Part shown: positions 1-13,952 of the stretch, piece after piece
Layout: the number at the start of each line of letters is the position of its first letter
Position numbering within the stretch: the first letter of the stretch is position 1
Source of the DNA: Patescibacteria group bacterium
GTDB taxonomy: Bacteria > Patescibacteriota > Patescibacteriia > JAXHNJ01
NCBI GenBank assembly: GCA_041649715.1
Contig: JBAZMP010000001.1
Span: forward strand, 82,741 to 146,740
Length of the DNA: 64,000 bases
Direction of reading: 5' to 3'
Program-made: the position numbers and the translations under genes
Notes under the pieces: generated by a model
The model's database searches: none
What the model saw: only the letters and a program-made list of their open reading frames with translations
What the model was told of the DNA's origin: nothing

Positions 1-12
1 GAGGCAGATGGT

Positions 13-89
13 GGGCGCGTAGCTCAGTTGGTTAGAGCGCGTCACTGATAATGACGAGGTCATAGGTTCGATTCCTATCGCGCCCACCA
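13..89 (+). tRNA. tRNA-Ile, anticodon GAT; CCA encoded
   Basis: Cloverleaf folded by eye: acceptor gggcgcg/cgcgccc, anticodon loop ctGATaa, T-arm ggttcgattcc, terminal cca. Confidence 0.88.
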
Positions 90-116
90 TTTGCCTCTTA
101 ATAGCGTCACTGACTC

Positions 117-228
117 GTCCCGCACCAAATGCCTGTGAAAATTTGCCTGGGTAGCTCAGTGGTAGAGCGAAGGACTGAAAATCCTTGCGTCGCCAGTCCG
201 ATTCTGGCCCCAGGCATTTGGTGCGGGA
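117..228. repeat. 18-bp perfect inverted repeat (tcccgcaccaaatgcctg / caggcatttggtgcggga) enclosing tRNA-Phe
   Basis: Direct reading: the left arm at 117-134 is the exact reverse complement of the right arm at 211-228. The right arm overlaps the tRNA 3' end. Confidence 0.8.
145..216 (+). tRNA. tRNA-Phe, anticodon GAA; no encoded CCA
   Basis: Acceptor gcctggg/cccaggc, D-arm agctcagtggtagagc, anticodon loop ctGAAaa, T-arm gccagtccgattctggc. Confidence 0.88.
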
Positions 229-261
229 TAAAATCCGGACTATAAATATTAAAGAAAATCC

Positions 262-297
262 TGGAGCCTGCCCCGCACTTTGAGCAAAGCGAAATAG
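262..297 (+). repeat. hairpin with the ccccgcac/gtgcgggg stem and a 16-nt loop; member of the CCCGCA-stem family
   Basis: Sequence gccccgcac tttgagcaaagcgaaata gtgcggggt. The same stem sequence appears as hairpin 2 of the element at 4670-4724. Confidence 0.6.
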
Positions 298-303
298 TGC
301 GGG

Positions 304-382
304 GTCGCCAGTCCGCCGTGAACTACTAAAGAGTTCACGACGCCATGTACCCTTTAGTGGTACATGGCGATTCTGGCCCCAG
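304..382 (+). pseudogene. tRNA-Phe 3' fragment (25 nt copy of the T-arm and acceptor 3' strand) interrupted in the T-loop by a 54-nt double-hairpin element
   Basis: gtcgccagtccg at 304-315 and attctggccccag at 370-382 are identical to the tRNA-Phe 3' part. The insert at 316-369 is ccgtgaact-actaaag-agttcacg followed by gccatgtacc-ctttagt-ggtacatggc. Confidence 0.75.
316..369 (+). repeat. double-hairpin element, copy A; loops ACTAAAG and CTTTAGT are mutually complementary
   Basis: Two adjacent perfect hairpins. Homologous copies lie at 4670-4724 and 52367-52421, with compensatory stem changes and the loops preserved. Confidence 0.8.
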
Positions 383-407
383 ACATCAACATTTTTAAAA
401 TTTTACT

Positions 408-1220
408 ATGAATAAAAAGCCTCTTATCACTTTTACCAGTGATTTTGGCGTTCAATCACAGGGCGTGGGGATGATGGAGGGAGCCGCTTTTAATATAAAT
501 CCAGAGATAAAGGTGATTCATCTAGCGCATGGCATTCCGGATTTCGATATTATCACTGGGGCGCGGATACTAGAGACAGTTTTTTATTTACCGGTCGGTT
601 TTCATGTTTGCGTGGTGGATCCCGGCGTAGGCGGGAAGAGAAAATGTTTGGCCATAAAGGTAAAAAGAGGCGATTATCTAATTGGTCCGGATAACGGCGT
701 ATTGATTCCCGCCGCCAGAAGATTAGGCGGGGTTGAAAAAGTGGCCGAGTTGCAAAATAAAAAATACATGGCCCCTTGCGTGTCTCCCATTTTTCACGGC
801 CGCGATATTTTTGCGCCGGCCGCCGCCTGGCTTTCGCGGGGAGTAAAATTAGAAGAGTTGGGGCCCATACTGGACCGGCAGGCATTGGCCGCGGCTCCCT
901 ACGAAGAAGCGACGGCCAAAGGCAATATTATTGAGGCAAGGATTATTTCCGTCAATAAATTCGGTTCAATTCATCTTAATATCACCCATCAATTATGGGG
1001 CGAGTGGAAATTGAATTTTCAAGACGTGGTCCAGCTCGAATTTGGCGAATGTAAATTGCGCCTACTGGTCGTTAATGTTTTCGGGGATGTTATGGTCGGC
1101 GAACCATTGATCATGAAAGATGATTATGGCCGAATTCAAGTTTCCATTAACCAGGGTTCATTCGCCGATGAATACCCGATTGAAATAGGGCAAAAAGTAC
1201 TAGTGAAGAAATTAAAATAA
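408..1220 (+). CDS. SAM hydroxide adenosyltransferase-like protein, DUF62 family (fluorinase/chlorinase fold)
   Basis: Motifs TSDFG, VVDPGVG, GPDNG and HGRDIFAP are typical of DUF62. Confidence 0.6.
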   Translation: MNKKPLITFTSDFGVQSQGVGMMEGAAFNINPEIKVIHLAHGIPDFDIITGARILETVFYLPVGFHVCVVDPGVGGKRKCLAIKVKRGDYLIGPDNGVLIPAARRLGGVEKVAELQNKKYMAPCVSPIFHGRDIFAPAAAWLSRGVKLEELGPILDRQALAAAPYEEATAKGNIIEARIISVNKFGSIHLNITHQLWGEWKLNFQDVVQLEFGECKLRLLVVNVFGDVMVGEPLIMKDDYGRIQVSINQGSFADEYPIEIGQKVLVKKLK

Positions 1221-1297
1221 CGGGGCGTAGCGCAGTTGGCTAGCGCGCCTGCTTTGGGAGCAGGAGGTCGCGAGTTCAAATCTCGCCGCCCCGACCA
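1221..1297 (+). tRNA. tRNA-Pro, anticodon TGG; CCA encoded
   Basis: Acceptor cggggcg/cgccccg, anticodon stem cctgc/gcagg with loop ttTGGga, T-arm gcgagttcaaatctcgc, terminal acca. Confidence 0.85.
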
Positions 1298-1306
1298 GTC
1301 ATTCTC

Positions 1307-2149
1307 ATGAAATATATATACATAATTCTCTTATTGGCAGTTTTGGGCGCAAGCCTATTTTTTGGAATAAGAGAATTTACGGCCTCTAATAATAGAAATA
1401 CAAATATTAATCCTAATACAAATATTAATCAAGGTTTCAATCAAAACACCAATCAAGCAGTTAATGCGGGCCCGGAAAATAATAATATCAATATCCCGAC
1501 GGAAGTCATTAATGCCAATATTGCGGTTGAATCGGTCCAGGGAGTTAGGCCGGAAATTACCAGGGGTAATACCGAAAAAAAGCAGGTTATCTTTACTTTT
1601 GACGCCGGATCGGGCATTCAGTCAGCGCAAAAAATATTGGACACCTTGAAAAATCATAATTTAACGGCCACTTTTTTTCTGACCGGCAAATGGATAGAAA
1701 AAAATCCGGATCTGGTGGAAAAAATGAGCGTCGCCGGCCATGAAATTTTCAACCACACTTATGATCATCCGCACCTGACCCAGATTTCCGACGCAGAAAT
1801 TGCGGATGAGCTTAAAAAAATGGATGATCTGATGCTTTATTACACTAATCAAACGACGAAACCATATTTCCGACCGCCTTACGGGGACAGGAATGCCCAT
1901 GTTGTGGAAATTGCCGGCAACCAAGGCTACACATCCGTTTTTTGGACGGTAGACGCTTTGGACTGGGAAGAAAGTACGGGTATGACCGCCGCCAAGGTTA
2001 AAGACAGAATTATTTCAAAGTTAGCGCCGGGCAACATTTACCTGATGCACGTGGGCGACAATATTACCGGCGAGATTTTGGAAGAAATGATCCAAAAAAT
2101 CCAGAATCAGGGTTACAAAATCGTCAGTCTGACCGAAGGGTTAAAATAG
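1307..2149 (+). CDS. polysaccharide deacetylase, NodB homology domain, with an N-terminal membrane anchor and an Asn-rich linker
   Basis: FTFDAG...TFFLTGKW...HEIFNHTYDHPHL deacetylase motifs. Confidence 0.7.
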   Translation: MKYIYIILLLAVLGASLFFGIREFTASNNRNTNINPNTNINQGFNQNTNQAVNAGPENNNINIPTEVINANIAVESVQGVRPEITRGNTEKKQVIFTFDAGSGIQSAQKILDTLKNHNLTATFFLTGKWIEKNPDLVEKMSVAGHEIFNHTYDHPHLTQISDAEIADELKKMDDLMLYYTNQTTKPYFRPPYGDRNAHVVEIAGNQGYTSVFWTVDALDWEESTGMTAAKVKDRIISKLAPGNIYLMHVGDNITGEILEEMIQKIQNQGYKIVSLTEGLK

Positions 2150-2195
2150 ATAAAATTGGCTTGTCATAGAGACAAATTTATGGCATGCTTATGGC

Positions 2196-3083
2196 ATGCC
2201 TGTTTTAGATTTTATCAAAGAAAATTCAAGCAGAGAGCCTGTAGGCGGTATATATAATTTTTTGCCCCCGGATTTGGACAAGATCAAAGCGATTGAAGTT
2301 GACACGTACTCGCAAAGGGCGGAGAAATTTAACGAAGAAAAGATTTTGAAGGGTAGCTTTTCCGAATTAAAACTATTTACTCCGATTTTTAACCAGGGAA
2401 AAGAAGGCAAATTGTTTTTGGAAATCGGAGGCGGTGACGGCCGTTTCGCCCTTCAATTAATGAAGCAGGGCTATAAGGTGGTGGAAACGGATATTGCTCC
2501 GGGTTCTGTTAAAAAAGCCCGCTATTTCGCAAAAAAACTGGGAGTGGCGGAGAATAACTATTTTATGGCGGTAGACGCGGAAAATCTGCCTTTTGATAGC
2601 GAGGTGTTTGACGGGGTATTTATGGTCGCTTCCCTGCACCATTTACCGGATTTCAGAAAGGCTCTAGCCGAAATTTACCGTGTGACGAAAAAAGATTCTC
2701 CGGTTTTGATCCTGCGCGAACCGGCCAGCTGGTTCCATTATGTTTTTTGGCCGATCATTGTCAGTTTCCGCGGGCTTATCAGAAGAAGGAATAAAGGCGA
2801 AGCAAAATCGCTGGCCGATGATGTGACGATGGGTTTTTCCCGCGGCAAATTAAAAAGAATATTTGCGGCCGCCGGTTTTACCGAAATAAAAATAACGCCG
2901 GTCGATTATTTGCGTAAATATAATACTTACTTTTGCTATATTTTTAACCGTCTTTTCAAAACAAATTTTTCTGAAAATACGAAAATCAACTATTTTTTGG
3001 CAAAAATAGATAAAATGATCGGCAAAATTCCCCTGATAAAAGAGTTGGCCTGGGATTGGGATTGCGTGATGTCTAAAAAATAG
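2196..3083 (+). CDS. class I SAM-dependent methyltransferase
   Basis: LEIGGGDGRF glycine-rich motif I, acidic residue after beta-2 (VETDIA), motif post-I/II. Confidence 0.65.
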   Translation: MPVLDFIKENSSREPVGGIYNFLPPDLDKIKAIEVDTYSQRAEKFNEEKILKGSFSELKLFTPIFNQGKEGKLFLEIGGGDGRFALQLMKQGYKVVETDIAPGSVKKARYFAKKLGVAENNYFMAVDAENLPFDSEVFDGVFMVASLHHLPDFRKALAEIYRVTKKDSPVLILREPASWFHYVFWPIIVSFRGLIRRRNKGEAKSLADDVTMGFSRGKLKRIFAAAGFTEIKITPVDYLRKYNTYFCYIFNRLFKTNFSENTKINYFLAKIDKMIGKIPLIKELAWDWDCVMSKK

Positions 3084-3125
3084 GTCTTGAAAAAAAATAT
3101 ATTTCGTGGCATCCTTTAAAATAAT

Positions 3126-3478
3126 GCGGGTATAGTATAATGGCTATTACCTGCCCGACTGCTTTGACAGCAGTCAAGGCGGGCGGGTGTCAGCTTTCTC
3201 CCGCAAAATAAGGAAGCGGAGCGACTATATTTTTCGAGGATCCCGCACGCAAAATAATAGTGTTCATTAAGCGGGCATAGTATAATGGCTATTATGTCAG
3301 CTTTCCAAGCTGAAAATACGGGTTCGATTCCCGTTGCCCGCTTAATGAGTGTTATTTTTCGGGATCCTCGCAACAAGATGGATTCACTTTGTTCATCTCA
3401 TCGTTGCGGGACAAGCTGAAAATACGGGTTCTGCGCCCGAGGCGCATCCGCCTTGGGTGGAGATTCCCGTTACCCGCT
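3126..3478 (+). tRNA. split or interrupted tRNA-Gly(TCC) gene with three insertions; either intron-containing or a pseudogene
   Basis: Exon pieces 3126-3149, 3188-3198, 3412-3431 and 3462-3478 reassemble into a tRNA-Gly that is near-identical to the intact copy. The insertions are 3150-3187 (hairpin), 3199-3411 (between anticodon nt 35 and 36, ends tcccgcaa/ttgcggga) and 3432-3461 (T-loop). Confidence 0.6.
3271..3342 (+). tRNA. tRNA-Gly, anticodon TCC, discriminator U; nested inside the 213-nt insertion of the split tRNA-Gly
   Basis: Acceptor gcgggca/tgcccgc, anticodon stem tcagc/gctga with loop ttTCCaa, 4-nt variable loop, T-arm acgggttcgattcccgt. Confidence 0.85.
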
Positions 3479-3579
3479 CCAATTTTTTTCGCTTTTAATA
3501 AGACTTGTTCTGCCGTTGGCAGGGGCCCTGCCCCAAAATTATTATTTTTAACGCCCATTAAGGCGATTTTTTTGTAAAA

Positions 3580-4275
3580 TTATAACACCGACTGTAATTT
3601 CTTTTTTGCTGAATTATAAAATTTTTCTGCTATTTCATATCCAGAAAAAGATCCCCCATTCTTTAAAACACTAACGCCTAAGTTTGCCGTACCCATAAAT
3701 GGGTCTAATATGTTCATGCCAGTTCTGAAATATTTTTTTATTATAAAATCAATTAATTCTTTGGGTTCAGCACAAGGATGTTCATTTGAATGCTTATAAT
3801 TAAAATAAAGAATTTCTCCAGTTTTATATTCAATTTTTGATTTATTAAAGACCAAGATTTGATGGCAATTAGAATGTGTGTTTGAAGAAGTCAAGTAATT
3901 TTTATCAAAACCATGATTGGGTAATTCAAAGCTATTTTTTGTATTTATAAAATTAATATGCCTTGTTTCCAAAAACATGTTAGCATTAACAACGGCATAT
4001 TTTTGAATCAAGCCAGCTAGTTGAATAAACTTGTTGTTAAAAAAGATGCTATCGGCAATTTCTATAATTAATCGGCCATCTTTTTTAAGTGTTTTTGCGC
4101 ATTCTTTAATTACATTCTTCATGAAGTTGAAATATTTTTCTAATTTTAATTTGTCAGTATAGCTGCCGTAATATGTCCCTATATTGTACGGTGGGCTAAA
4201 AAAGACAATGTCAACTGATTTTGGCTTAATTTCATTCATCGATTCCGATGATTTGTTAAAAATTGTATATTTCAT
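3580..4275 (-). CDS. DNA methyltransferase, beta-class (N6-adenine or N4-cytosine); no adjacent restriction enzyme seen
   Basis: Motif IV SPPY near the N-terminus (DIVFFSPPY) and motif I FxGxG near the C-terminus (DPFMGTANLG), which is the permuted beta-class order. Confidence 0.7.
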   Translation of the reverse strand: MKYTIFNKSSESMNEIKPKSVDIVFFSPPYNIGTYYGSYTDKLKLEKYFNFMKNVIKECAKTLKKDGRLIIEIADSIFFNNKFIQLAGLIQKYAVVNANMFLETRHINFINTKNSFELPNHGFDKNYLTSSNTHSNCHQILVFNKSKIEYKTGEILYFNYKHSNEHPCAEPKELIDFIIKKYFRTGMNILDPFMGTANLGVSVLKNGGSFSGYEIAEKFYNSAKKKLQSVL

Positions 4276-4411
4276 ATTAATATCATAGCTAAAGACAGCT
4301 TATCTGTAAATCTGGCCCATAATAATCAATAGAATCACCCATAAAATATGTCATTGTTTATTCTGCGGCCTAGATAAAGACTTACTTAAAGTATGAGTAT
4401 TAACTTGTTTT

Positions 4412-4440
4412 TTGACAATAAAAGTTATTGTCCTTATAAT
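4412..4440 (+). promoter_or_regulatory. consensus sigma70-type promoter, TTGACA-17-TATAAT
   Basis: ttgaca at 4412-4417, a 17-nt spacer, and tataat at 4435-4440. Confidence 0.65.
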
Positions 4441-4446
4441 ATAAAT

Positions 4447-4576
4447 AGTTCTTAAGAGACGCTTTTTTCCAAAGCCGGGCAAACAGGTATCGTAACAGTC
4501 GCATAATATGAGGTGGTTCCAATCCACCCTGTTAGATAGCCCGGTACCCCTGCATGTCGCATGCGGGGGTTTTCTT
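4447..4576 (+). ncRNA. candidate small RNA of about 130 nt with a T-arm-like hairpin, ending at an intrinsic terminator
   Basis: Starts just downstream of the consensus promoter. Nested helices gccgggc/gcccggt and aacagg/cctgtt surround ggtggttccaatccacc. Terminator cccctgcatg-tcg-catgcggggg plus tttt at 4547-4576. No ORF. Confidence 0.45.
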
Positions 4577-4651
4577 ATGGAGTGAAAAAGGCTAAGTATT
4601 GCCAAAAGAGAATAAAATGCTTATACTTTTGATATATTGATGGGAAAATAG

Positions 4652-4736
4652 GCCGCCGTGGTGAAATTGCCGTGAACCACTAAAGGGTTCACGGCAACCC
4701 CGCACCCTTTAGTGGTGCGGGGTGGTATACACGCAA
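4652..4736 (+). pseudogene. duplicate of tRNA-Leu(TAA) nt 1-30, interrupted in the D-loop by a 55-nt double-hairpin element
   Basis: gccgccgtggtgaaattg at 4652-4669 and gtatacacgcaa at 4725-4736 are identical to positions 1-30 of the tRNA-Leu at 5011. The insert lies at 4670-4724. Confidence 0.8.
4670..4724 (+). repeat. double-hairpin element, copy B (ccgtgaacc-ACTAAAG-ggttcacgg caa ccccgcacc-CTTTAGT-ggtgcgggg)
   Basis: Same architecture and loops as the copies at 316-369 and 52367-52421. Confidence 0.8.
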
Positions 4737-4747
4737 TAATTAATATT

Positions 4748-5005
4748 ATGCATACAGTCTATATCCTTTTACTTTCGAATAAACAATTATACACTGGAAT
4801 CACTACAAATTTAATACGAAGAATAAATGAGCATAAAGAGAGAAAAAGTCCGTTTACAAAGAATCGATTGCCCGTTAAACTGATATTTTACGAAGTGTTT
4901 AACAATAAGGAAGATGCGGAAAAGAGAGAAAGATATTTTAAAACGAGTAAGGGGAAATATTCATTAAAGGCGTTACTACGACATGCATTGAGCAAATATA
5001 ATTGA
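4748..5005 (+). CDS. GIY-YIG nuclease family protein, small UPF0213/YhbQ-like; the ORF track starts at 4712 but ATG 4748 is the likely start
   Basis: VYILLLSNKQLYTGITTNLIRRINEH matches the GIY-x10-YIG...R...E motif. The upstream extension of the tracked ORF overlaps the tRNA fragment and hairpin element. Confidence 0.7.
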   Translation: MHTVYILLLSNKQLYTGITTNLIRRINEHKERKSPFTKNRLPVKLIFYEVFNNKEDAEKRERYFKTSKGKYSLKALLRHALSKYN

Positions 5006-5010
5006 TCCAT

Positions 5011-5097
5011 GCCGCCGTGGTGAAATTGGTATACACGCAAGACTTAAAATCTTGTGGGAGCAATCCCGTGTCGGTCCGAGTCCGACCGGCGGCACCA
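5011..5097 (+). tRNA. tRNA-Leu, anticodon TAA, type II with a long variable arm; CCA encoded
   Basis: Acceptor gccgccg/cggcggc, anticodon stem caaga/tcttg with loop ctTAAaa, variable arm gggagcaatccc, T-arm gtcggtccgagtccgac, terminal acca. Confidence 0.85.
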
Positions 5098-5218
5098 AAA
5101 AATAGGCCACGTAACTGATGGTCTGTTTTTTTGATATGATCCTTGACTTTAGGCGTTAGTAATGCTAAAATATATGAGTAAACAACGAATTTTGATATTA
5201 AAAAAATAAAAATATATT

Positions 5219-5635
5219 ATGACTTACGAAGAAAAAAAACAAATCTTAAACAATCATAAAAAGGAAAAAAATTATTATTACGCGATTTTGGCTCTTATTT
5301 GCCTAAATTTTATTTATGGTCTTATTGTGTCTATTCCAAAGTTTAAGGATATAAGTATGCCTGACAAAACTGATCTTGCCGGTTTTGGTCTCATCCCGGC
5401 CGGCATGGTTATAGTCGCCTTGATTATAGCCATTGGATTACAGGTATTATATTTTTATGGAATTTTACGGCTACAAGGCTGGGTGACGATATTCATGTGG
5501 ATTGGTTTTATCGGCTCAATCTTATCTTTTGACCTGGTAAACATAATCATTACAGCCGTCATATTATTCGGCTATAAAAAAGTGTTAAAAATATTCAAAT
5601 CAACGATTCCTGCTCAGCCAAAGCCACAAAGCTAA
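5219..5635 (+). CDS. hypothetical membrane protein with 3-4 transmembrane helices
   Basis: Hydrophobic segments. Preceded by a TTGACT-17-TAAAAT-like promoter around 5147-5175. Confidence 0.4.
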   Translation: MTYEEKKQILNNHKKEKNYYYAILALICLNFIYGLIVSIPKFKDISMPDKTDLAGFGLIPAGMVIVALIIAIGLQVLYFYGILRLQGWVTIFMWIGFIGSILSFDLVNIIITAVILFGYKKVLKIFKSTIPAQPKPQS

Positions 5636-5672
5636 CCATAGAAACAATTAAAACATATAATGATAAAAATCC

Positions 5673-6386
5673 ATGAAAAATAAAATCTTAATCGGTTTGT
5701 TTATTTTTTGCCTCGCTTTGATTGGCGCCGGTTGTGGAGAAAGTACCGACACTCATAATATCAATAAATCTGCAACTATCGCCAACGTGACGATTCCTTC
5801 TTCCGGAACACTCGGCCGTTTTATGGGAAAATTGGACACCCTGGTCATTGCTTCGGAGGATCTGCCGGTCGCCTACGGTCCCTATAAAGGAACTGATGAT
5901 TATCAAGACTATGGATATTATAAAGCGAGCCATTTAAAGGAAGAAGAAGAAAAAGCCGGCTATAATGAAGGTGATTTAATCCAATTATATATCGCAGATA
6001 AGATTGTCTCAGCCAATGATTATGGGTTATCAAGCGTTGATTTAAGCTTTCATGAATTTAAAGATACGGCTACGGCGGCAAAAAATTACGCTTATAATAA
6101 AGGGTATTATTTAGAGATGGGGATAAAATCATTTTCCAATATAAAAGATGAACATTTCTATTATGGAGATACGTCTAGCGAATCAAGCAATTCCCAGTAC
6201 TCAACAACTCGTTGGGGCATAAGTATTCTGATTGACAACTTGTGGGTTAATATAAATATTGATTTGCCCGCTACGGCGACTGCCACGGAAATAAACAGCA
6301 TCGTTGATAATTGGTATAAAAAAGTGGAAGTATATCAGCCAGGAACAGCCGCCGATGTGACCGCGGAAAATGCCTCCGGCATATAG
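5673..6386 (+). CDS. hypothetical lipoprotein
   Basis: Signal peptide with lipobox LIGAGC. Confidence 0.45.
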   Translation: MKNKILIGLFIFCLALIGAGCGESTDTHNINKSATIANVTIPSSGTLGRFMGKLDTLVIASEDLPVAYGPYKGTDDYQDYGYYKASHLKEEEEKAGYNEGDLIQLYIADKIVSANDYGLSSVDLSFHEFKDTATAAKNYAYNKGYYLEMGIKSFSNIKDEHFYYGDTSSESSNSQYSTTRWGISILIDNLWVNINIDLPATATATEINSIVDNWYKKVEVYQPGTAADVTAENASGI

Positions 6387-6486
6387 GATATACGCTAATA
6401 ATAATTTCCGTATAGTATTAATGTAGATATAATATTTGATATTATAAAAAACAGATCTCGAATCCAGGGTCTGTTTTATTTTATAA

Positions 6487-6918
6487 TTATATTCCTAAGG
6501 CAATAAGGATAATACCGATGGGAAACAAAGCCCAGTAAAAACTCGGGACGCCTGCAAACCAACTTTTATGCCACCAGATATCTTTATTATTTTTATTGAA
6601 TTTAGTCAAGCCGTAATGGGGATTCAGGACAAACCATAAAAAATCTTCCAAAGTCCACATCGAGATAAAGACCCCGAAAAGCAAGGCCTCTTTTTTCCAG
6701 GACCAACTGGCGAAAAACAGGGGAAAATGAAAAATAATCAGAGTGAAGAGAATGATAAAAATATGATAGCCCGTGATCGGTTTCTCCCCCATTTTCTTTT
6801 TTAGCCGGAAAGTGGGCAAGTCAGCCGCCCAGCCATGTTTGCCTTCAATTTGAACTTCCAGGGCGGCCAGCGCTAGACTCGCGGCCAAAGTAAAAAATAT
6901 TAGTGATATTATCTGCAT
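6487..6918 (-). CDS. hypothetical integral membrane protein
   Basis: Multiple hydrophobic helices. No recognisable motif. Confidence 0.4.
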   Translation of the reverse strand: MQIISLIFFTLAASLALAALEVQIEGKHGWAADLPTFRLKKKMGEKPITGYHIFIILFTLIIFHFPLFFASWSWKKEALLFGVFISMWTLEDFLWFVLNPHYGLTKFNKNNKDIWWHKSWFAGVPSFYWALFPIGIILIALGI

Positions 6919-6992
6919 ACACTAATTTTACCACAAACAAAAAAGCGGGGGAACCCGCTTTTTTGCCTTAATATGCTTTACTAATTTATTTT

Positions 6993-7484
6993 TTACAGTA
7001 TCTCCATTTTTATAACTTTAACTCCCCATTGGATCGCATCTGTCTTGGTGGGCATCCAGATATCGGCGATATATCTGCCTTTGTTGGCTGCCATGCGGTC
7101 AGTCACGGTAAAAACTTTGTCTCCGAATTTTTCCGGAAACCTAACTTTAGTGCCGAAGGGCAGATAATTATAGGCAATAATGCCATCCCGGACTTTTTCT
7201 CCCGAAGCGGTGGTAAAGGGGTCGTTGTCGCATTCTTCACGGCTTGAGGAATAAGCGGTTACCGAAAGCTTGATTATCTTCCGCGGCTGACGATTGGCAA
7301 TTTCAGGCAGTCCGGTCAAGGACTTTATTTTTTCAACCTGCCGATAATCATTTTGATTAAGGATTGATATTTCTTTAGCTTGGACTTTTTCCGTTTGCGG
7401 GAAGAACCAGCTTAATAGACTAAAAAGCGCGATGAACGCAATAATTTTTTCCGGATTAAAGACCAATCGGGCCTTCATCTTCAT
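6993..7484 (-). CDS. 3D-domain protein (MltA/YuiC-like cell-wall hydrolase fold) with an N-terminal membrane anchor
   Basis: TAYSSSREECDNDPFTTASGEKV...GTKV...VTDRMAA...DIW matches the 3D-domain conserved Asp pattern. Confidence 0.6.
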   Translation of the reverse strand: MKMKARLVFNPEKIIAFIALFSLLSWFFPQTEKVQAKEISILNQNDYRQVEKIKSLTGLPEIANRQPRKIIKLSVTAYSSSREECDNDPFTTASGEKVRDGIIAYNYLPFGTKVRFPEKFGDKVFTVTDRMAANKGRYIADIWMPTKTDAIQWGVKVIKMEIL

Positions 7485-7752
7485 GGGTAATTTAGTTACT
7501 GGCTTAGACCTTGCTTCGCTCTTTATTCCTAAATTCGCGAGAGCAAAGTATCAAAAAACTGCTAACCTTAGAGAAAAATAGCAGTTTGTTGATATATCAC
7601 CTTAGCACATCCATAAATTTTGTCAAGCCCCGTTGGAAATCCAGAAAAATCAGCGCCATGATCGGCAAATGATAATTTCTAACAGGGTAAGGGGCCTTTT
7701 TGGTAAAGAAAAAACCGTTCCGAGGGGAACGGTTATTGTTCAAAGGTGATAT

Positions 7753-8163
7753 TTACTCGAAATTCCAGTATTTCGGGCCGTTTGGACACTGATTGTTCAT
7801 GTCATCCCAGGTGGTGATCTCCAGCTGTTTTGCGATCAGGGTGTAGCTGATCACACCGGGGCCGCAAAGATACTGGTCGAGAATGATGTTTTTACAACAA
7901 TCATCATACCGCCGGACAAGGACCCGGGTACAGCCGTTCACCGGTTTGATAATCTTGAGTTCATACGGAATGAGATCGAGATTTCGGCGCGAATCATGGC
8001 GGGATTGGTTGTCGGGGTTGTAGATGAAGGTGATGTCCTTCATCTGAAAGACATAGAGTCCGTCGGAATTTGTGTTGATCTCATTGGGGTCAAGGAGGCA
8101 TGAGGAGGTTAAGCCGAAGATTATAAGCAGGGTCATAATAAACATCTTGTTCATTTTGATCAC
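7753..8163 (-). CDS. hypothetical Cys-rich secreted lipoprotein
   Basis: Signal peptide with LTSSC lipobox and 7 Cys in the mature part. Followed by the bidirectional terminator at 7713-7742. Confidence 0.4.
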   Translation of the reverse strand: MIKMNKMFIMTLLIIFGLTSSCLLDPNEINTNSDGLYVFQMKDITFIYNPDNQSRHDSRRNLDLIPYELKIIKPVNGCTRVLVRRYDDCCKNIILDQYLCGPGVISYTLIAKQLEITTWDDMNNQCPNGPKYWNFE

Positions 8164-8609
8164 CTCGTTTTAGGAAAGGACATTTGTTTCACAGCACCTT
8201 TGAAAAATCATCTTAGCGCAAAATTGATATTTTGTCAAGCCTAAAAATTATTTCAAGATTTATGTCTGTTGGGATGATTTGCGGACTAGGCCGATTTTAA
8301 GAAAAAAATTTATAATTTTTTCGCATCTTGATTAAGGAATTTGCCCTTGATAAATATACTTTTTTTTATTCTTGATCAGTGAATATTATCAGCCGCATGG
8401 AATAACTTCGGGAAATTTATTTGGCTAGATAACCGACATTTTTGTTTATTATATTGTTATTATTAAGCGCATACTATCTGAAAAATTTTTCAAGGCCAGC
8501 TCTTTTTCGCCCCTATCTATTGTCTGCCAGGAAGAGTATACTATAATCAGGCTCTCTTTAAAGGAGCGCACCTTGTCCAAGGTGCTAAGTTAACCAAAGA
8601 AAGCATCTT

Positions 8610-9161
8610 ATGACTCCCAATATTTCTCCCTCGCACAGCGAGGACGAACTAACCCGAGTTTCGGACGCCAATTCCGAACAAACAATAAGAAAAAGCACGG
8701 CTTCAGGACCCAGCCAGGTCGCCCAAACGGTTTCCACGTCAACTTCGACGCCGACGAGCGAATCAACTAAGACTGAACGCACGGTTGGCGCCACGCCGGG
8801 CGCGGCCAAAGAATACGCCCAGAAAAAGACGCTTTTTCACGCCTACCAAGTAATTTGGTTCATTTTCGGCTTTATTGAAATTGTCCTTGCCTTCCGTTTC
8901 GTACTCAAAGTAATGGGCGCCAATCCTGACGCCGGATTCACCAAATTTGCCTACGGCTTAAGCTATCCGTTTGCCGCTCCATTCTTAAGTATTTTCCAAC
9001 CGACCGCCAATAAAGGCATTGAAACAACTTCTTTCTTTGAGTGGTCAACTATTGTGGCGGCGATCGTTTATGTCGTTATCACCTGGGGTATTACCAAAAT
9101 CTTTAAATTAGGCAAGCCGACTGATTCGAGAGAGGTCGTCGACACCGTTGACAGACAGTAG
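8610..9161 (+). CDS. hypothetical protein with a Ser/Thr-rich N-terminus and a C-terminal YggT-like membrane domain
   Basis: Low-complexity STS-rich region followed by two transmembrane segments. Confidence 0.4.
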   Translation: MTPNISPSHSEDELTRVSDANSEQTIRKSTASGPSQVAQTVSTSTSTPTSESTKTERTVGATPGAAKEYAQKKTLFHAYQVIWFIFGFIEIVLAFRFVLKVMGANPDAGFTKFAYGLSYPFAAPFLSIFQPTANKGIETTSFFEWSTIVAAIVYVVITWGITKIFKLGKPTDSREVVDTVDRQ

Positions 9162-9197
9162 AGCCAGTAGGAGAATTCTTCATCTTCGTCAAATTAT

Positions 9198-9230
9198 AAA
9201 AAAAAGGCGCTTACGCGCCTCTTTTTTATA
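9198..9230. terminator. bidirectional intrinsic terminator
   Basis: aaaaaaa ggcgc ttac gcgcc tctttttt: a GC hairpin flanked by A and T runs. Confidence 0.6.
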
Positions 9231-9252
9231 ATTTTGTGTGAAATTTGTTCCC

Positions 9253-9447
9253 TATCTAATCAGTGGCTCTGCGCCGCTGAAAAAAATAAATTTATCGTCT
9301 GGAGCCGGTTTTACGAAAAAGTTCGCACCTTTTTCGTCTGACCGGTCGGCGGGCGGCCGGTGCGCGGGGGGGTCGGCCGCCCGCCCTGTCCGCGCTTTTT
9401 CTTAAAAAGCCTTCCTTTTTCGTGCCACGCTTCACGTGGCGCGCCGC
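9253..9447. repeat. inverted repeat copy A of the recombinase-associated repeat; 9297-9423 (127 bp) is 100% identical to the reverse complement of 14483-14609
   Basis: Direct comparison with the reverse complement of 14460-14705. The outer 45 nt are diverged. Contains a 12-bp all-GC hairpin, ggcgggcggccg...cggccgcccgcc, and a terminal hairpin whose stem shows compensatory changes between copies. Confidence 0.85.
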
Positions 9448-9460
9448 AACTATAACAATG

Positions 9461-10045
9461 CTATAAACAATCACTTTTACTTATAGCAAAAAAGAAAGTT
9501 TGAGTTGAGTTTTGCACTTGATAAGAATATTCCATGTTTATATCTTGGTCTAGGAGATTATTCCTTGTTTCTGGTGTTTGGCAAGCATTGGGGGCGATGA
9601 TATTTTTCAGTGACTCATTTGTAAGTTGGCTTGTGTCAATATCATGGAGTGTATAAACATAACGAATTGCATTTGGTTCTGCTAAAATATCAGTCCAAGT
9701 CGTTACCGCATCAACTTGCTGAGGAAGTGTTGATTGGGCTTTTATTTCCTGGACGGATTCCTTGATAATATCCTGTTTAGAGTCGCCCCCTAAAATAGCG
9801 GAAGTACCGTTATATACAACATAACGAGCGACTAAAAATGCCATAATAAAAACTACTATGCCTATAACAGAGCCCACAAGTGATTTAATCTTTTTACTCT
9901 TTTTTCCTGGGGTTTTTTCTGATGTTTTGGGTGTTAATTCAGATTGAACGATTTTACCGCCGCAACTCTTGCAAAATTTTGCATTATCATTATTTTCGTT
10001 ACCACAATTTTTACAATATATTTTTTTCTCTTCGGTATTAGTCAT
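9461..10045 (-). CDS. zinc-ribbon membrane protein: N-terminal CxxC-x-CxxC, one transmembrane helix, extracytoplasmic C-terminal domain
   Basis: CKNCGNENNDNAKFCKSCG followed by a hydrophobic helix. Confidence 0.45.
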   Translation of the reverse strand: MTNTEEKKIYCKNCGNENNDNAKFCKSCGGKIVQSELTPKTSEKTPGKKSKKIKSLVGSVIGIVVFIMAFLVARYVVYNGTSAILGGDSKQDIIKESVQEIKAQSTLPQQVDAVTTWTDILAEPNAIRYVYTLHDIDTSQLTNESLKNIIAPNACQTPETRNNLLDQDINMEYSYQVQNSTQTFFFAISKSDCL

Positions 10046-10226
10046 AAATTAGTAATTAAATATTATTTTATTTATTCTGCACGGCTAGGCTCCAGATAGC
10101 AAGCTTGATTTTATTAGGTAGGTTTTTAAGGGTATAGTATTTTTTGTGTACCGCTCTTGTCCCGTCGGATGACGGGATCACGGGGCGCGCCGCAATGGAT
10201 ATAAAAAATTGGTTAGGGTTTCTATG

Positions 10227-11102
10227 TTAATTCATTATATTATTATTTCGGAAAATATCAAGAAACGAGGGAGTTGCATGACCAAAAGAGTATGAAGCGT
10301 TTAGGGTTTCTATATATGCCTGTTCTTTATATATTTTTAGTAATTTTTTCCCCTCATCAGTAATTGGCACCTCTTTCTCATTGATTTTTATTACCTTATA
10401 GCCACTCACAATTGATACAAGGCGGCCAGTCCTGATATCAAAAATTGGGCCACCACTATTTCCAGGGTTGAAAGCCATTGTAAATTCATATAGGTATTTA
10501 TCTTTAGAAGTTTGATATCTACAGTTAATAACACCCTTGTCGACCCTAAGTAGTATGTTACCAATTAATGGTTTACTTAAATCATTATTGGCAAAATCCA
10601 ATTTGCACAAAGGATATCCCAAAACACCAACTTCCGACCCAATCGGTAAAAAATCTTTTGAGATTCTAACAAAATCATTTCTATCTGCTAATATTTTGTC
10701 GTCAACCTGATAGAATTCCTTATCTAAATTAAATATTGCTAAGTCAATCTCGGGGAAAATAAACAAATCTTTATTTATTTTTGGTTCATAAATTCTATAG
10801 TGCCAACTATTATCATCGTCGTGTTTTAACAAATAATATTTGTCACCATCATGGTGCTGAGACGACTCATCTTTTTGAGTATTACTAACAACATGAGCAG
10901 CGGTTAATAATTTCTCCTGTGCTGCCACAAAACCAGTCCCAAGTGTGGTCCACCTAATTACTTGTTGATCGTTAATTTTTTCACTTCTACCACGTACAAT
11001 TATATAAACTGATTTTTTTAGCCACCTCACACATTCAGAAAATGAATGAAATTTTTCTGGTCTTTTTGGGATTCTGATTTTTTTATCTTTTGACATATTC
11101 AC
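10227..11102 (-). CDS. trypsin-like (S1 family) serine protease
   Basis: Catalytic triad context TAAHVV (His), DLAIF (Asp) and GNSGGPIF (Ser). Confidence 0.7.
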   Translation of the reverse strand: MNMSKDKKIRIPKRPEKFHSFSECVRWLKKSVYIIVRGRSEKINDQQVIRWTTLGTGFVAAQEKLLTAAHVVSNTQKDESSQHHDGDKYYLLKHDDDNSWHYRIYEPKINKDLFIFPEIDLAIFNLDKEFYQVDDKILADRNDFVRISKDFLPIGSEVGVLGYPLCKLDFANNDLSKPLIGNILLRVDKGVINCRYQTSKDKYLYEFTMAFNPGNSGGPIFDIRTGRLVSIVSGYKVIKINEKEVPITDEGKKLLKIYKEQAYIETLNASYSFGHATPSFLDIFRNNNIMN

Positions 11103-11135
11103 AACTTTAAAGGTGGGTTATTAAAAATCAATAAA

Positions 11136-13067: not shown

Positions 13068-13704
13068 CTACGTATTTTTTATCTAACTCCATAGGTGAGT
13101 TAAGCAGCCTGGAGAATCTCGTTTCGCACATTTTAAGAAATTCTACCAAGTCATTTCTGTTATAATCTTCGACAGCTTCAAATAATTGTTGTAAGTTTTT
13201 TCTCCTCGTTTCCGGAAGGGAATCGAGGGTACAGTATATTAAATCACAAAACTCAAATTCGGATATCTTTATTGTATTTCCAACTCTAAGATACTCTTTA
13301 TATTTACTATTTTCTTCCAGTTGTTTAACTAATCGACCACTTTTTGTCCTTCGGTCGCCTTTAATCGCAAGTAGTTTCTTTGTGTCTATTTCGTGAGCTC
13401 CAAGAACTTTACGAATCTTTTGAACGATATTTAAACCTCGGCCCGTAATTTCGAATCCCTGAGCCTTACTGCCTGTAATTAAGCCTTTGTCTGTTCTACA
13501 TCTTAACCAACATTTTTCAACCTGAGATGAATCAGGATATTTTGAAATATAACCAGGCAATCCGAATCTTTGTGGAAAAAGCTCATAACATTCAACAACA
13601 AGATTCTCAAAGTTTGTTACTTTATTCCTCTGGATTAATGAGTATAAGGCAAATACTAATAAATCATCATAAGGAATTTTATTATAAATTTTTGGGTCAA
13701 ACAT
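13036..13704 (-). CDS. hypothetical protein, 222 aa, in an operon with the GHKL ATPase
   Basis: ORF overlaps the downstream gene by about 30 nt, suggesting translational coupling. No motif recognised. Confidence 0.4.
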   Translation of the reverse strand: MFDPKIYNKIPYDDLLVFALYSLIQRNKVTNFENLVVECYELFPQRFGLPGYISKYPDSSQVEKCWLRCRTDKGLITGSKAQGFEITGRGLNIVQKIRKVLGAHEIDTKKLLAIKGDRRTKSGRLVKQLEENSKYKEYLRVGNTIKISEFEFCDLIYCTLDSLPETRRKNLQQLFEAVEDYNRNDLVEFLKMCETRFSRLLNSPMELDKKYVGGMHRRKIKN

Positions 13705-13712
13705 AATATTAT

Positions 13713-13952
13713 CTATTTAAGCTTAAATCTTTGATCTTTGGTTGTGTGGTGAAATTTTGATTTAACGTCGCGGACCATTTTTTCAATAGAATCAAAAATT
13801 TTTCGGACATCACTTTCCGTATAATCATATGCTTGACGATTCGCACAATTCCCTAAAATCATAAGTTTATTTAAAACTTCATTTGTTCTGTATTCGGCAA
13901 GTCTTTTAAATCTATCTGCTTTTGACTCGTTAATTGGGGGTTTGGGTTTCAT
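13713..13952 (-). CDS. hypothetical small basic protein, 79 aa
   Basis: Tightly spaced within the minus-strand operon. Confidence 0.35.
   Translation of the reverse strand: MKPKPPINESKADRFKRLAEYRTNEVLNKLMILGNCANRQAYDYTESDVRKIFDSIEKMVRDVKSKFHHTTKDQRFKLK

Follow-up and report, generated by a model that had tools for sequence, protein, structure and literature searches.

The tRNA-Phe gene of a Patescibacteria (CPR) contig was found to be enclosed by a perfect 18-bp stem, formed by its leader and by a trailer segment that includes the 3' end of the tRNA itself. The stem is kept in related lineages through compensatory changes, and the enclosed unit belongs to a family of stem-bounded insertions in tRNA genes, some of which hold a whole tRNA. 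The reading to which we give an even chance is that a replacement tRNA cassette, devoid of CCA, was inserted in the resident gene and that its closing stem has been kept as an RNA folding and processing helix. The window, that is, the whole stretch of DNA analysed, is 64 kb long, and the cassette lies near its start, just downstream of a 16S rRNA gene and tRNA-Ile.

The tRNA-Phe cassette and its stem

The following features were assigned in the first 400 nucleotides.

1-97, + strand: tRNA-Ile unit, with tRNA-Ile(GAT) including CCA at 13-89, downstream of the 16S rRNA gene just outside the window
104-113, + strand: remnant of a partial tRNA-Ile copy (GCGTCACTGA; anticodon stem and half of the loop)
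118-135, + strand: 5' arm of the cassette stem (TCCCGCACCAAATGCCTG)
136-144, + strand: A/U-rich spacer of 9 nt (TGAAAATTT) that separates the 5' arm from tRNA position 1
145-216, + strand: tRNA-Phe(GAA) according to Rfam (144-217 by ARAGORN), intact, without encoded CCA and without intron
211-228, + strand: 3' arm of the cassette stem (CAGGCATTTGGTGCGGGA), made of the last five acceptor bases, the discriminator A216 and trailer X (217-228)
229-385, + strand: older tRNA-Phe copy, displaced and degenerate
229-270, + strand: its anticodon-arm region, with a 12-nt filler (242-253) at 33/34, the intron site of relative L003
271-304, + strand: its variable-region hairpin (CCCCGCAC...GTGCGGGG)
305-314, + strand: 5' half of its T arm
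315-368, + strand: DHE-B, a 54-nt double-hairpin element, in its T loop at 56^57
369-385, + strand: the remaining T arm and 3' acceptor strand, with one mismatch and without CCA

The two arms form a perfect inverted repeat (18/18). The initial annotation had reported this repeat, which is real, with the 5' arm one base off, at 117-134. It had also noted that the 3' arm overlaps the end of the tRNA, and indeed the last six bases of tRNA-Phe are covered; the arm thus takes in the discriminator and five of the seven bases in the 3' acceptor strand. On the 5' side, positions 118-129 are a lineage-specific segment (X'), T130 pairs with the discriminator, and 131-135 (GCCTG) is a copy of the 5' acceptor strand of tRNA-Phe itself. 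By our own estimate, about 3e-4 repeats of this kind (18/18 within 300 nt) are expected in 64 kb, in line with the view that it is not accidental; a chance origin is ruled out by the repeat length, the fold z-score and the covariation. The description of the region as AT-rich did not hold, the GC content being 0.46 over positions 1-2000.

Folding of positions 100-240 with RNAfold, as had been proposed, gave a structure of lowest energy that contains the 18-bp helix (-59.4 kcal/mol, z = -4.96, 0/200 shuffles as stable). With the nearest-neighbour model, values of -57.5 kcal/mol for the 18-bp helix and -52.5 kcal/mol for the competing true acceptor stem were obtained. Such competition would be unexpected if the helix served as a folding aid and nothing else. 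No convincing promoter or terminator was found within positions 1-400 of the window. An assembly artefact was rejected because an independent Logan contig (L002) is identical across the region and assemblies from ENA, JGI and NCBI show these architectures again.

The neighbouring tRNA-Ile has a leader/trailer helix of its own (1-19 with 79-97; 19 nt, 95% complementary, one G.T), which spans the discriminator and CCA. The remnant GCGTCACTGA was considered as part of an outer tRNA-Ile with the Phe cassette in its anticodon loop; this was discarded, as L003, which has two longer partial copies laden with hairpins at the position matching 104-113, shows that the remnant is left over from a tandem partial tRNA-Ile copy. 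The displaced Phe copy is also present in L038 and L054, without the double hairpin. In L032, a new Phe cassette with a completely different stem lies upstream of a nearly intact older copy, the trailer of which matches that of the functional cassette in L034. The tRNA-Phe of L003 holds a group I intron in its anticodon loop (RF00028, 84.6 bits). The ORF that follows this gene was tried as a LAGLIDADG endonuclease and rejected, since Pfam gave a weak HTH match only.

Conservation of the stem among relatives

The same tRNA-Phe layout was common to 10 related metagenomic lineages: X', acceptor copy, spacer, tRNA-Phe without CCA, X. The stem measures 16-21 bp in the relatives (about two turns), and the spacer 6-10 nt, mostly 8-10, with no conserved sequence. 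The arm sequences are unrelated between lineages, yet their complementarity is kept. In alignment A2, assembled by hand from anchored arms, 93.2% of the cells were paired and both sides had changed in 13 of 19 pairs. The covariation score was 0.68 versus 0.18 in shuffles (0/500), and slid controls reached 34-46%. Leader and trailer of the same locus paired at 9.0/10 positions, compared with 4.9/10 when arms of different loci were combined.

The core of X (columns 4-12) showed zero unpaired cells among the 10 lineages, its only departures being U.G pairs. Mismatches were confined to the helix ends, namely the acceptor-copy end (columns 13, 18 and 19) and the outermost columns 1-3. In an unbiased scan, interior G.T exceeded interior A.C by 4 to 1, a bias that rests on few events and fits folded RNA and folded single-stranded DNA alike. 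In the tRNA-Gly cassette described below, four pairs are Watson-Crick in L048 and all G.U in the window. These comparisons support in part that the Phe stem is maintained by compensatory change, and the preference for G.U over A.C would fit a single-stranded, probably RNA, helix.

A highly improbable origin is that the stem is a non-functional by-product, its 5' arm having been copied in inverted form from the trailer and the 3' end of the tRNA by fold-back or template-switch repair, and being perfect because it is young. The 5' arm does hold a segment exactly complementary to the discriminator and the 3' acceptor strand; its inner end varies by locus, with five acceptor bases in the window and seven elsewhere, and the acceptor-copy part has decayed in L032, L035 and L042. 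Against such an origin, the decay stops at the acceptor-copy end and the outer edge, the X core being fully paired in 10 lineages. Furthermore, related stems share their ends (TCCC...GGGA) and differ in their interiors, as expected from stepwise compensation.

Stem-bounded units in tRNA genes

The motif proposed earlier as a signature, the exact 7-mer TCCCGCA, was not enriched, with 11 occurrences against 10.3 expected. A modest enrichment was seen for inverted CCCGCA...TGCGGG pairs within 300 nt, with 6 found against 1.4 expected under a first-order Markov simulation (at least 6 in 2/200 simulations), each of the six being located in a tRNA array within the first 5 kb. The motif-capped hairpins do exist; their true sites are 271-304, 4698-4722 and 52672-52691, and they carry variants of the 7-mer, not identical copies. 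With the motif relaxed to YCCCRY...RYGGGR, the suggested family of units able to hold whole tRNA genes was recovered. Its stems enclose tRNA-Phe (window, L037), tRNA-Gly (window, L048, L054), tRNA-Pro (L055) and one further tRNA (L041), and many hairpins of 24-37 nt without cargo occur inside tRNA fragments. The termini of the L055 tRNA-Pro cassette (TCCCGCACC / GGTGCGGGA) are identical over 9 nt to those of the Phe cassette in the window.

That these units are insertions was borne out by a presence/absence series at tRNA-Pro. In the window, the resident gene is uninterrupted and bears CCA. In L055, the resident anticodon arm is replaced by a cassette with a different, CCA-less allele, and in L054 a new allele is accompanied by a displaced 3' fragment with CCA. 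At the level of sequence comparison, the series establishes the uninterrupted, CCA-bearing gene as the ancestral state. Comparison likewise establishes that the cassette arrives inside or beside the resident, which then decays and gathers cargo-less hairpins; this accounts for the many tRNA remnants that the window holds near Ile, Phe, Gly, Leu, Cys and Lys. The GC-rich insertions of the family occupy loops (the D loop, the anticodon loop at 33-36 and the T loop at 56^57) as well as 25/26 and the variable region. Replacement tRNAs are carried for Phe and Gly in the window and for Pro and Val in relatives, most members being cargo-less single or double hairpins.

At tRNA-Gly, the insertions are nested.

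3126-3481, + strand: outer tRNA-Gly(TCC) with CCA, in pieces 3126-3149, 3188-3198, 3412-3431 and 3462-3481, with three insertions between them
3150-3187, + strand: 38-nt hairpin between D arm and anticodon arm of the outer tRNA, also present in L054
3199-3411, + strand: tRNA-Gly cassette of 213 nt at 35/36 of the outer anticodon loop, termini TCCCGCAA / TTGCGGGA
3253-3270 and 3342-3359: leader/trailer helix of the cassette
3271-3342, + strand: inner tRNA-Gly(TCC), without CCA
3432-3461, + strand: 30-nt GC-rich hairpin in the T loop (56^57) of the outer tRNA, with a close relative at 16444-16473

The 213-nt insertion with its tRNA-Gly(TCC) and the bounds TCCCGCA(A) / (T)TGCGGGA was found as first reported, and it contains an additional 11-bp helix in which CGAGGATCCCG pairs with CGGGATCCTCG. 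Joined in silico, the outer pieces were recognised by ARAGORN as a perfect tRNA-Gly(TCC) with CCA, which differs from the inner tRNA solely at the compensated pair 6:67. The region 3126-3481 folds into nested cloverleaves (-172 kcal/mol, z = -10). Orthologous cassettes were found in L048 and L054. In L054, the cassette frame is conserved and the cargo allele is different, and the outer tRNA is without T arm. In L048, a DHE-B unit in the outer copy bears the trailer of the inner copy, as is expected from homology-directed copying.

The suggestion that the units are intron-like was not upheld. In such a case, cassette and small hairpins would be excised and the outer exons ligated, one nested gene giving two tRNAs; we consider this extremely improbable. 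The exact removal of three insertions from 3126-3481 does yield a perfect tRNA, and all insertions lie at loops or junctions, where archaeal non-canonical introns are also located. Group I introns at 35/36 are, moreover, known in Patescibacteria tRNAs (PMC13011429). However, no bulge-helix-bulge, in which a 4-bp helix separates two bulges of 3 nt, was present at any junction: folding of 3126-3481 gave a 2x1 internal loop where the cassette joins the outer exons, and placed the small hairpins immediately next to the exons. No group I core or other Rfam ribozyme matched in window positions 1-5300 at E <= 1, in a search for which the L003 intron served as positive control for RF00028 (84.6 bits). 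The cassette ends in A instead of G. Removal fails to restore a tRNA from the outer Pro of L055, which has no anticodon arm, from the outer Gly of L054, which has no T arm, or from the outer Phe copies, in which truncations and mismatches were found.

Related remnants were assigned at tRNA-Leu, tRNA-Cys and tRNA-Lys.

4652-4736, + strand: 5' part of a tRNA-Leu copy (tRNA positions 1-18 and about 19-30), the D loop of which holds DHE-B (4670-4722) at G18^G19
4698-4722: hairpin with a motif variant (CCCCGCACC...GGTGCGGGG)
4748-5005, + strand: GIY-YIG nuclease gene, 85 aa, UPF0213 type, between partial and intact tRNA-Leu
5011-5097, + strand: intact tRNA-Leu(TAA) with CCA
16437-16485, - strand: 5' partial copy of tRNA-Cys in pieces 16485-16474 and 16443-16437, with a 30-nt D-loop hairpin at 16473-16444
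16384-16313, - strand: intact tRNA-Cys without CCA, the partial copy 16437-16485 lying upstream
52538-52465, - strand: tRNA-Lys without CCA, with remnants downstream (52346-52463)
Within 52346-52463, - strand: 43-nt filler ending in GTTC, downstream of tRNA-Lys and preceding DHE-B
52420-52366, - strand: DHE-B at T-loop position 56^57 of the Lys locus
52365-52346, - strand: displaced 3' fragment of tRNA-Lys with CCA
52752-52735, - strand: tRNA-Leu-like 5' fragment (unit 52672-52752), followed by two hairpins at the same D-loop site
52734-52692, - strand: first of these hairpins (TCCCGTC...GACGAGGA)
52691-52672, - strand: second of these hairpins (TCCCGCC...GGCGGGA)

All 12 DHE-B copies were located in D or T loops of tRNAs. 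The GIY-YIG gene lay directly upstream of an intact tRNA-Leu in the 8 genomes examined (8/8; four isoacceptors, at least five loci), and in all 8 it was flanked on its other side by a partial old tRNA-Leu copy with a hairpin element. Linkage of the nuclease gene to a rearranged target at several independent loci was found for tRNA-Leu only, as a genomic association. No DNA-binding domain was seen in this UPF0213 protein by Pfam, and in the window neither the Phe nor the Gly cassette has a nuclease, recombinase or transposase gene beside it. A simple homing model with immunity does not explain why the D loop of the regenerated tRNA-Leu is still intact. The inserts measure 25-270 nt and encode no integrase, while displaced tRNA fragments do exist. 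A large serine recombinase is encoded at 14774-16237 and belongs to a separate, larger region. Phages were considered as vehicles and discarded, a viral collection giving no match to DHE-B or to the tRNA-Phe of the window.

No consistent target-site duplication was detected; at the D loop of tRNA-Leu, a TG of 2 nt may be one. No genome had identical cassette copies at several loci. YCCC...GGGR is common at the termini and 9 nt are identical in two cases, most stems being otherwise different. Recognition by sequence is unlikely, since stem sequences are mostly not conserved between cassettes. A broader proposal, which we advance tentatively and below an even chance, is that the units are a new class of mobile element that recognises the folded shape of tRNA genes and serially overwrites single-copy tRNAs, leaving nested fossils, the stem being both element end and processing helix. 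Stem-bounded units would enter the loops, and the complete form would bring a replacement tRNA and sometimes a minimal GIY-YIG nuclease. The sites G18^G19 and C56^G57 touch at the tRNA elbow.

It is also conceivable, though unlikely, that the stem is a host-encoded, vertically inherited RNA processing helix, that nothing is mobile and that the nearby fragments are unrelated debris of local duplication. The strong compensatory evolution of the stem would agree with this, as would its presence in L036 in a clean context without any tRNA fragments. Direct extensions of the acceptor stem are found at tRNA-Ile (window, L003), tRNA-Phe (L003, L038) and tRNA-Val (L042), and the junction ...GGGA|TAAAnTCCGGACT is conserved in the window, L037, L038 and L042, indicating long vertical inheritance. 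A purely resident helix is, however, difficult to reconcile with the different, CCA-less allele inside the resident tRNA-Pro gene, with the wholly different stem of the new L032 cassette beside a nearly intact old copy, with the 9-nt termini shared by Phe and Pro cassettes of different genomes, and with the cargo allele swapped within the conserved Gly frame of L054.

Alternatively, the repeat may act only as DNA, as the hairpin or cruciform end of a mobile cassette that is read by a structure-specific nuclease or recombinase, with no role in RNA; this is judged unlikely. In integron attC sites and IS200/IS605 ends, structure is conserved rather than sequence, and here too pairing is kept while the stem sequences vary. 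The confinement of insertions to cloverleaf loops and junctions, the tolerance of G.T but not A.C, which would also suit a single-stranded DNA hairpin, the association of related elements with a GIY-YIG nuclease of structure-specific type, and the serine recombinase at 14774-16237 can be counted in the same direction. Nevertheless, vertically inherited orthologous cassettes (Gly in the window, L048 and L054; Phe at several loci) keep their pairing through G.U intermediates, which selection for mobility alone would not bring about in resident copies. No recombinase adjoins any cassette, and the stem always takes in the 3' acceptor strand and discriminator, on the sense strand of the tRNA.

Proposed maturation, known systems and implications

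For the replacement cassette with a retained RNA helix, insertion may be driven by a homing-type nuclease specific for structure or for tRNA genes, the only candidate seen being the UPF0213 GIY-YIG protein, the gene of which accompanies the double-hairpin element at tRNA-Leu. The stem would then be kept by selection on the transcript, a composite of 16S, tRNA and pseudo-tRNA in which it could make the cargo tRNA fold as a unit of its own. Bacterial RNase P is inhibited when the leader pairs with the 3' end (PMC9433436); because of this block, the stem probably must be opened before RNase P acts. It is predicted that a double-strand-specific, RNase III-like enzyme cleaves first, and that RNase P, RNase Z and the CCA-adding enzyme then finish the tRNA. 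No rnc, Mini-III or M5 gene was noticed among those ORFs that were scanned in the window and in 10 kb upstream (about 74 kb of genome).

Several known systems share part of these properties. In rRNA operons, leader-trailer helices are processed by RNase III around 16S and 23S rRNA, and by Mini-III and RNase M5 around 23S and 5S rRNA. As in those helices, the flanks of a mature stable RNA pair here into a long helix with compensatory changes, and the tRNA-Phe of the window stands in an rRNA operon context, after 16S and tRNA-Ile. In contrast, one tRNA is enclosed, cleavage is a prediction, and the Phe helix competes with the acceptor stem because it includes the 3' acceptor strand of the tRNA itself. 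Literature searches gave no description of leader-trailer helices around bacterial tRNAs.

Integrative elements that target tRNAs (tyrosine-integrase islands, prophages) regenerate the tRNA and prefer anticodon and T loops. The likeness lies in insertion in a tRNA gene at these sites, with an intact tRNA kept and a partial copy displaced. The units described here differ in their size of 25-270 nt, the lack of an integrase and a cargo of one whole tRNA or none; they also leave 5' fragments and nest repeatedly. Fungal mitochondrial free-standing GIY-YIG and LAGLIDADG homing genes invade together with a replacement copy of part of the gene. Similarly, a GIY-YIG gene lies here next to a piece duplicated from its presumed target, and what was displaced remains as a pseudogene. 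Mitochondrial GC clusters and double-hairpin elements are likewise small GC-rich double hairpins, scattered in non-essential DNA. In mitochondria, double-hairpin elements are a recognised class. The present elements differ in their bacterial host, tRNA-gene targets, fixed cloverleaf positions and minimal UPF0213 nuclease.

Archaeal non-canonical, multiple, split and permuted tRNA genes also show insertions in the D loop, at 25/26, and in the anticodon and T loops, with GC-rich helices at the junctions, and exact removal of the inserts restores the tRNA, as for the outer Gly copy of the window. Unlike those introns, the inserts have no bulge-helix-bulge, occur in a bacterial host with outer copies broken in relatives, and may be a complete tRNA of the same identity. 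Patescibacteria tRNA group I introns share the phylum and the kind of target, one being present in the tRNA-Phe of L003, and the Gly cassette occupies 35/36, the site highlighted in PMC13011429; the window insertions, however, have tRNAs as cargo, terminate in a base other than G and are without a group I core. Rickettsia palindromic elements and REP/REPIN are also short intragenomic palindromes tolerated inside genes for structured products, and attC sites conserve structure and not sequence. These three groups differ in that the present units have a strict preference for tRNA-gene loops and carry tRNA cargo, and that no RAYT or IntI gene occurs in the DNA seen.

Literature searches led to the group I intron paper (PMC13011429) and the mitochondrial analogues, and to no account of nested cassettes or of leader-trailer stems around tRNAs in CPR. 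If the interpretation is correct, the single-copy essential tRNA genes of these ultra-small bacteria would be hot spots that are invaded and replaced time and again, and the nested tRNA fragments would be a readable fossil record of gene replacement. The annotation of CPR genomes would then have to be read anew wherever tRNAs are fragmented, missed or duplicated, or occur as copies with and without CCA. A leader paired with the 3' acceptor strand would require an order of maturation unlike the textbook bacterial pathway. Finally, the widespread orphan UPF0213 GIY-YIG family (E. coli YhbQ-like) would gain a candidate function, with the double-hairpin element or tRNA-gene DNA as its candidate substrate.

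The stem that closes the tRNA-Phe cassette

The features at the start of the window are as follows.

13-89, tRNA-Ile(GAT)
118-135 and 211-228, exact inverted repeat (18/18)
118-129, lineage-specific 5' arm of the Phe stem (X')
145-216, tRNA-Phe(GAA), intronless and with no encoded CCA
217-228, complementary trailer (X)

The 18-bp repeat forms the stem that closes a cassette, a stem-bounded unit with a CCA-less tRNA-Phe inside. The perfect repeat described round this tRNA in the initial annotation was confirmed at 18/18, with its true coordinates one base further right. In the 3' arm, five bases from the end of the 3' acceptor strand are followed by the discriminator A216 and a 12-base trailer. 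The final bases of the 5' arm are T-GCCTG, where a partner for the discriminator is followed by a copy of the tRNA's 5' acceptor strand, and an A/U-rich spacer of 9 nt leads to tRNA position 1. When the region was folded with RNAfold, a check proposed in the same annotation, the minimum-energy structure contained the 18-bp helix (z = -4.96). Forcing the true acceptor stem carried a penalty of about 5 kcal/mol (-52.5 vs -57.5), so that two conformations compete in the precursor.

The window belongs to a Patescibacteria (CPR) contig of 221 kb from a metagenome. The 16S rRNA gene was found just upstream of the window start, in a further 10 kb of sequence (L001). The same flank carries two adjacent tRNAs with a CTA anticodon (L001 145-220 and 243-317, ~9.3 kb upstream of the window), labelled tRNA-Pyl by ARAGORN and possibly amber-suppressor-like. 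The nearest named genome was a Patescibacteria group bacterium MAG (L003), whose adjoining SAM hydroxide adenosyltransferase is 79% identical to that of the window (408-1220). Since the closest other relatives of this protein among species-representative genomes are DPANN archaea (Woesearchaeota and others, 53-61%), its sequence suggests gene exchange between Patescibacteria and DPANN, both ultra-small.

Compensatory change in the Phe stem

A metagenome collection was scanned with the 3' half of the window tRNA-Phe, giving 14 contigs. A common layout was observed in 10 lineages (window included): X', T plus the copied 5' acceptor strand, a spacer of 6-10 nt (mostly 8-10), a CCA-less tRNA-Phe and X. 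The X sequences of different loci are essentially unrelated (36% identity) and each is complementary to its own X'. Leader and trailer paired at 9.0/10 positions within a locus vs 4.9/10 between loci. Pairs were then counted on a hand-built alignment of the stem arms (A2), each arm anchored at the tRNA end. The paired cells amounted to 93.2%, compared with 69.4% in shuffles and 34-46% when the partner was slid. Both sides had changed in 13/19 pairs (7.2 in shuffles), the covariation score was 0.68 (0.18 shuffled), and the observed A2 value was matched by 0/500 shuffles. The X core (nine columns) held zero unpaired cells and departed only to U.G, mismatches being confined to the inner end of the acceptor copy and the outer edge. 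The Phe stem is thus maintained by compensatory change. An origin as a neutral fold-back by-product was rejected on the distribution of the mismatches.

Other arrangements were also seen. X' stands directly against the tRNA in L003 and L038, and the tRNA-Phe of L044 is plain, encodes CCA and lacks the stem. The L003 gene holds a group I intron (RF00028, 84.6 bits), absent from the window copy. Directly 3' of this intron-bearing gene lies a 221-aa ORF (L003 9321-9986) for which Pfam gave a weak N-terminal HTH match only; its LYWAEG motif may recall LAGLIDADG endonucleases. The window tRNA-Phe has the T loop TCCGATT (198-204), with C instead of the nearly universal U (pseudouridine 55) at position 55. 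C55 was present in every retrieved tRNA-Phe copy, the retrieval pattern itself containing C55.

In a stem scan scoring G.T and A.C alike, the interior G.T : A.C ratio was 4 : 1. In the cassette enclosing tRNA-Gly, four successive pairs are Watson-Crick in the orthologous L048 cassette but G.U throughout in the window, and every one of the four transitions preserves pairing in RNA of the tRNA sense strand. The constraint appears to act on a single strand, probably RNA; the numbers behind both results are small. The repeat might instead be a DNA-only hairpin end, as G.T is also tolerated in a single-stranded DNA hairpin, but this leaves unexplained the upkeep of resident copies through G.U intermediates.

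If the stem acts in RNA, it bears on tRNA maturation. Since bacterial RNase P is inhibited when the leader pairs with the 3' end, as published (PMC9433436), maturation would probably begin when an enzyme of RNase III type makes a double-strand-specific cut, after which RNase P, RNase Z and CCA addition would complete it. Speculatively, the spacer and acceptor copy may leave the leader single-stranded for RNase P without loss of the X/X' clamp.

A cassette family inserted into resident tRNA genes

Interrupted and fragmentary tRNA copies in the window, several bearing DHE-B, a ~54-nt double-hairpin element found in tRNA D and T loops

229-385, older degenerate tRNA-Phe copy downstream of the Phe cassette, acceptor end mismatched, with a 12-nt filler at 33/34 (L003's intron site)
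271-304, hairpin in the variable region of this copy
315-368, DHE-B (54 nt) in this copy, exactly at T-loop 56^57
3126-3481, outer tRNA-Gly(TCC) with CCA and three interruptions: a 38-nt hairpin at about 25/26, a 213-nt cassette at 35/36 (CCA-less tRNA-Gly on a long rod-like helix) and a 30-nt hairpin at 56^57
4652-5097, tRNA-Leu 5' fragment with DHE-B in the D loop, then a GIY-YIG gene and an intact tRNA-Leu
16437-16485 (minus), tRNA-Cys 5' fragment with a D-loop hairpin, ahead of tRNA-Cys
52346-52463 (minus), tRNA-Lys 3' fragment with CCA, preceded by DHE-B at 56^57, after a CCA-less tRNA-Lys
52672-52752, Leu-like 5' fragment and two hairpins

The Gly region folds into nested cloverleaves (-172 kcal/mol, z = -10). 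When the four outer pieces are joined, a perfect tRNA-Gly results, distinguished from the inner copy only by a compensated 6:67 pair. In the window, a fragment of the same tRNA adjoins 4/5 CCA-less tRNAs vs 2/7 CCA-bearing ones. A similar pattern of fragments and hairpins surrounds tRNA-Phe in L034, L035, L037, L038, L040, L041 and L042; in L037, L041 and L042 an outer degenerate tRNA-Phe surrounds the functional cassette, which sits after its D arm.

The initial annotation had proposed a stem-bounded family able to hold whole tRNA genes, and this was borne out by a search for inverted YCCCRYA...TRYGGGR pairs in all fetched loci. Such stems enclose tRNA-Phe (window, 18 bp; L037, 19 bp), tRNA-Gly (window, L048 and L054), tRNA-Pro (L055, with the termini TCCCGCACC / GGTGCGGGA of the window Phe cassette) and a further tRNA in L041 (21 bp). 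Many cargo-less hairpins of 24-37 nt with these stems lie within tRNA fragments; one of them is the second hairpin of the tRNA-Leu DHE-B in the window. The intron-like element proposed in the same annotation was discarded, as the bulge-helix-bulge motif is missing and the outer copies of relatives are broken.

The direction of events was read from the tRNA-Pro locus, the site after the SAM hydroxide adenosyltransferase gene.

Window 1221-1297, uninterrupted CCA-bearing gene
L055, same gene carrying a D-loop hairpin, a cassette with a different, CCA-less tRNA-Pro allele standing in place of the whole anticodon arm
L054, CCA-less allele, then a 3' fragment of the resident gene that carries T-loop hairpins and CCA
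L003, nested form, within which the contig ends

This presence/absence series indicates that the uninterrupted gene is ancestral and that cassettes are insertions bringing foreign alleles. The association of CCA-less tRNAs with fragments and two further loci agree with this polarity. L032 has a new Phe cassette, its stem wholly different, upstream of a nearly intact older copy whose trailer matches the stem of L034's functional cassette. In the L054 Gly locus the cassette frame is kept, the cargo allele is different and the T arm of the outer copy is lost. A purely vertical host helix, with the neighbouring tRNA debris unrelated to it, is contradicted by these allele and presence/absence data. 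The cassettes form a family, inserted into resident tRNA genes that afterwards decay.

At 32040-32100 (minus), a hairpin CCCCTGC...GCAGGGG and the sequence AGTACCA come after the CCA-less tRNA-Arg(CCT), which may be another displaced 3' end. Between tRNA-Ile and tRNA-Phe, L003 (8614-8870) has a tandem pair of degenerate, partial tRNA-Ile copies into which several GC hairpins are inserted; the window retains only 10 nt of this stretch (104-113).

The GIY-YIG gene, the double-hairpin element and a proposed mechanism

The GIY-YIG gene (4748-5005) lies between the partial tRNA-Leu copy (4652-4736) and the intact tRNA-Leu (5011-5097). It encodes a protein of 85 aa of UPF0213 type (nearest solved relatives PDB 1zg2 and 1ywl) with homologues in other Patescibacteria. 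The gene was directly upstream of an intact tRNA-Leu, and preceded by a hairpin-bearing partial older copy, in 8/8 genomes (the window, L045, L046, L048, L049, L050, L051 and L053), spanning four isoacceptors (TAA, CAG, CAA and TAG) and at least five different neighbourhoods. L050 has one allele in the partial copy and another in the intact gene, and L045 has three tandem partial copies. In L051 and L053 old tRNA-Leu flanks the module on both sides and the new tRNA-Leu has no CCA, which L053 retains on the displaced 3' fragment.

DHE-B copies of 53-55 nt were found in the window (315-368, 4670-4722 and 52366-52420) and in L040, L045, L046, L048 and L049. In 521 kb of loci, 12/12 copies were at D loop G18^G19 or T loop C56^G57, positions that touch at the tRNA elbow. 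The element has one conserved stem and one that covaries; the loops CACTAAAGG and CCTTTAGTG are mutually complementary, forming a 9-bp inverted repeat ~20 bp apart. In L048 a DHE-B unit within the outer Gly copy bears the inner copy's trailer, as would result from repair of a break at 56^57 with the DHE-bearing copy as template. The GIY-YIG link is an association, for tRNA-Leu only, and a nuclease activity of the protein in such events is putative. Insertion would be driven by a homing-type nuclease recognising tRNA-gene structure, and the stem would persist because it lets the cargo tRNA fold as a separate, closed unit amid tRNA look-alikes in the transcript.

The DNA on both sides of this module has further features. 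A perfect sigma-70-type promoter match (TTGACA-17-TATAAT, 4412-4440) stands ahead of a structured stretch of ~100 nt, after which comes a strong hairpin resembling a terminator (4546-4570). A small RNA may be encoded at 4412-4577, which L048 and L054 conserve; against Rfam it gave no family beyond a weak chance-level match. The tRNA-Gly(GCC) gene (16226-16301) contains the end of a large serine recombinase (14774-16237, plus) with Resolvase, Recombinase and Zn-ribbon domains. The ~9 kb before the recombinase (about 5200-14700) are low in GC (0.34-0.41), with ORFs mostly without a Pfam match. This DNA probably represents an element that integrated between the tRNA-Leu and tRNA-Gly/Cys genes.

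Group I introns in Patescibacteria tRNAs are the subject of a 2026 paper (PMC13011429), and mitochondrial double-hairpin elements are known from published papers. No account of nested tRNA cassettes, bacterial tRNA leader-trailer stems or the GIY-YIG/tRNA-Leu module was found in the searchable literature. Every ingredient has a known analogue, namely processing stems, tRNA-targeting islands, endonuclease genes carrying replacement gene segments and palindromic elements. The reading as a complete element, if true, would be close to a new class.
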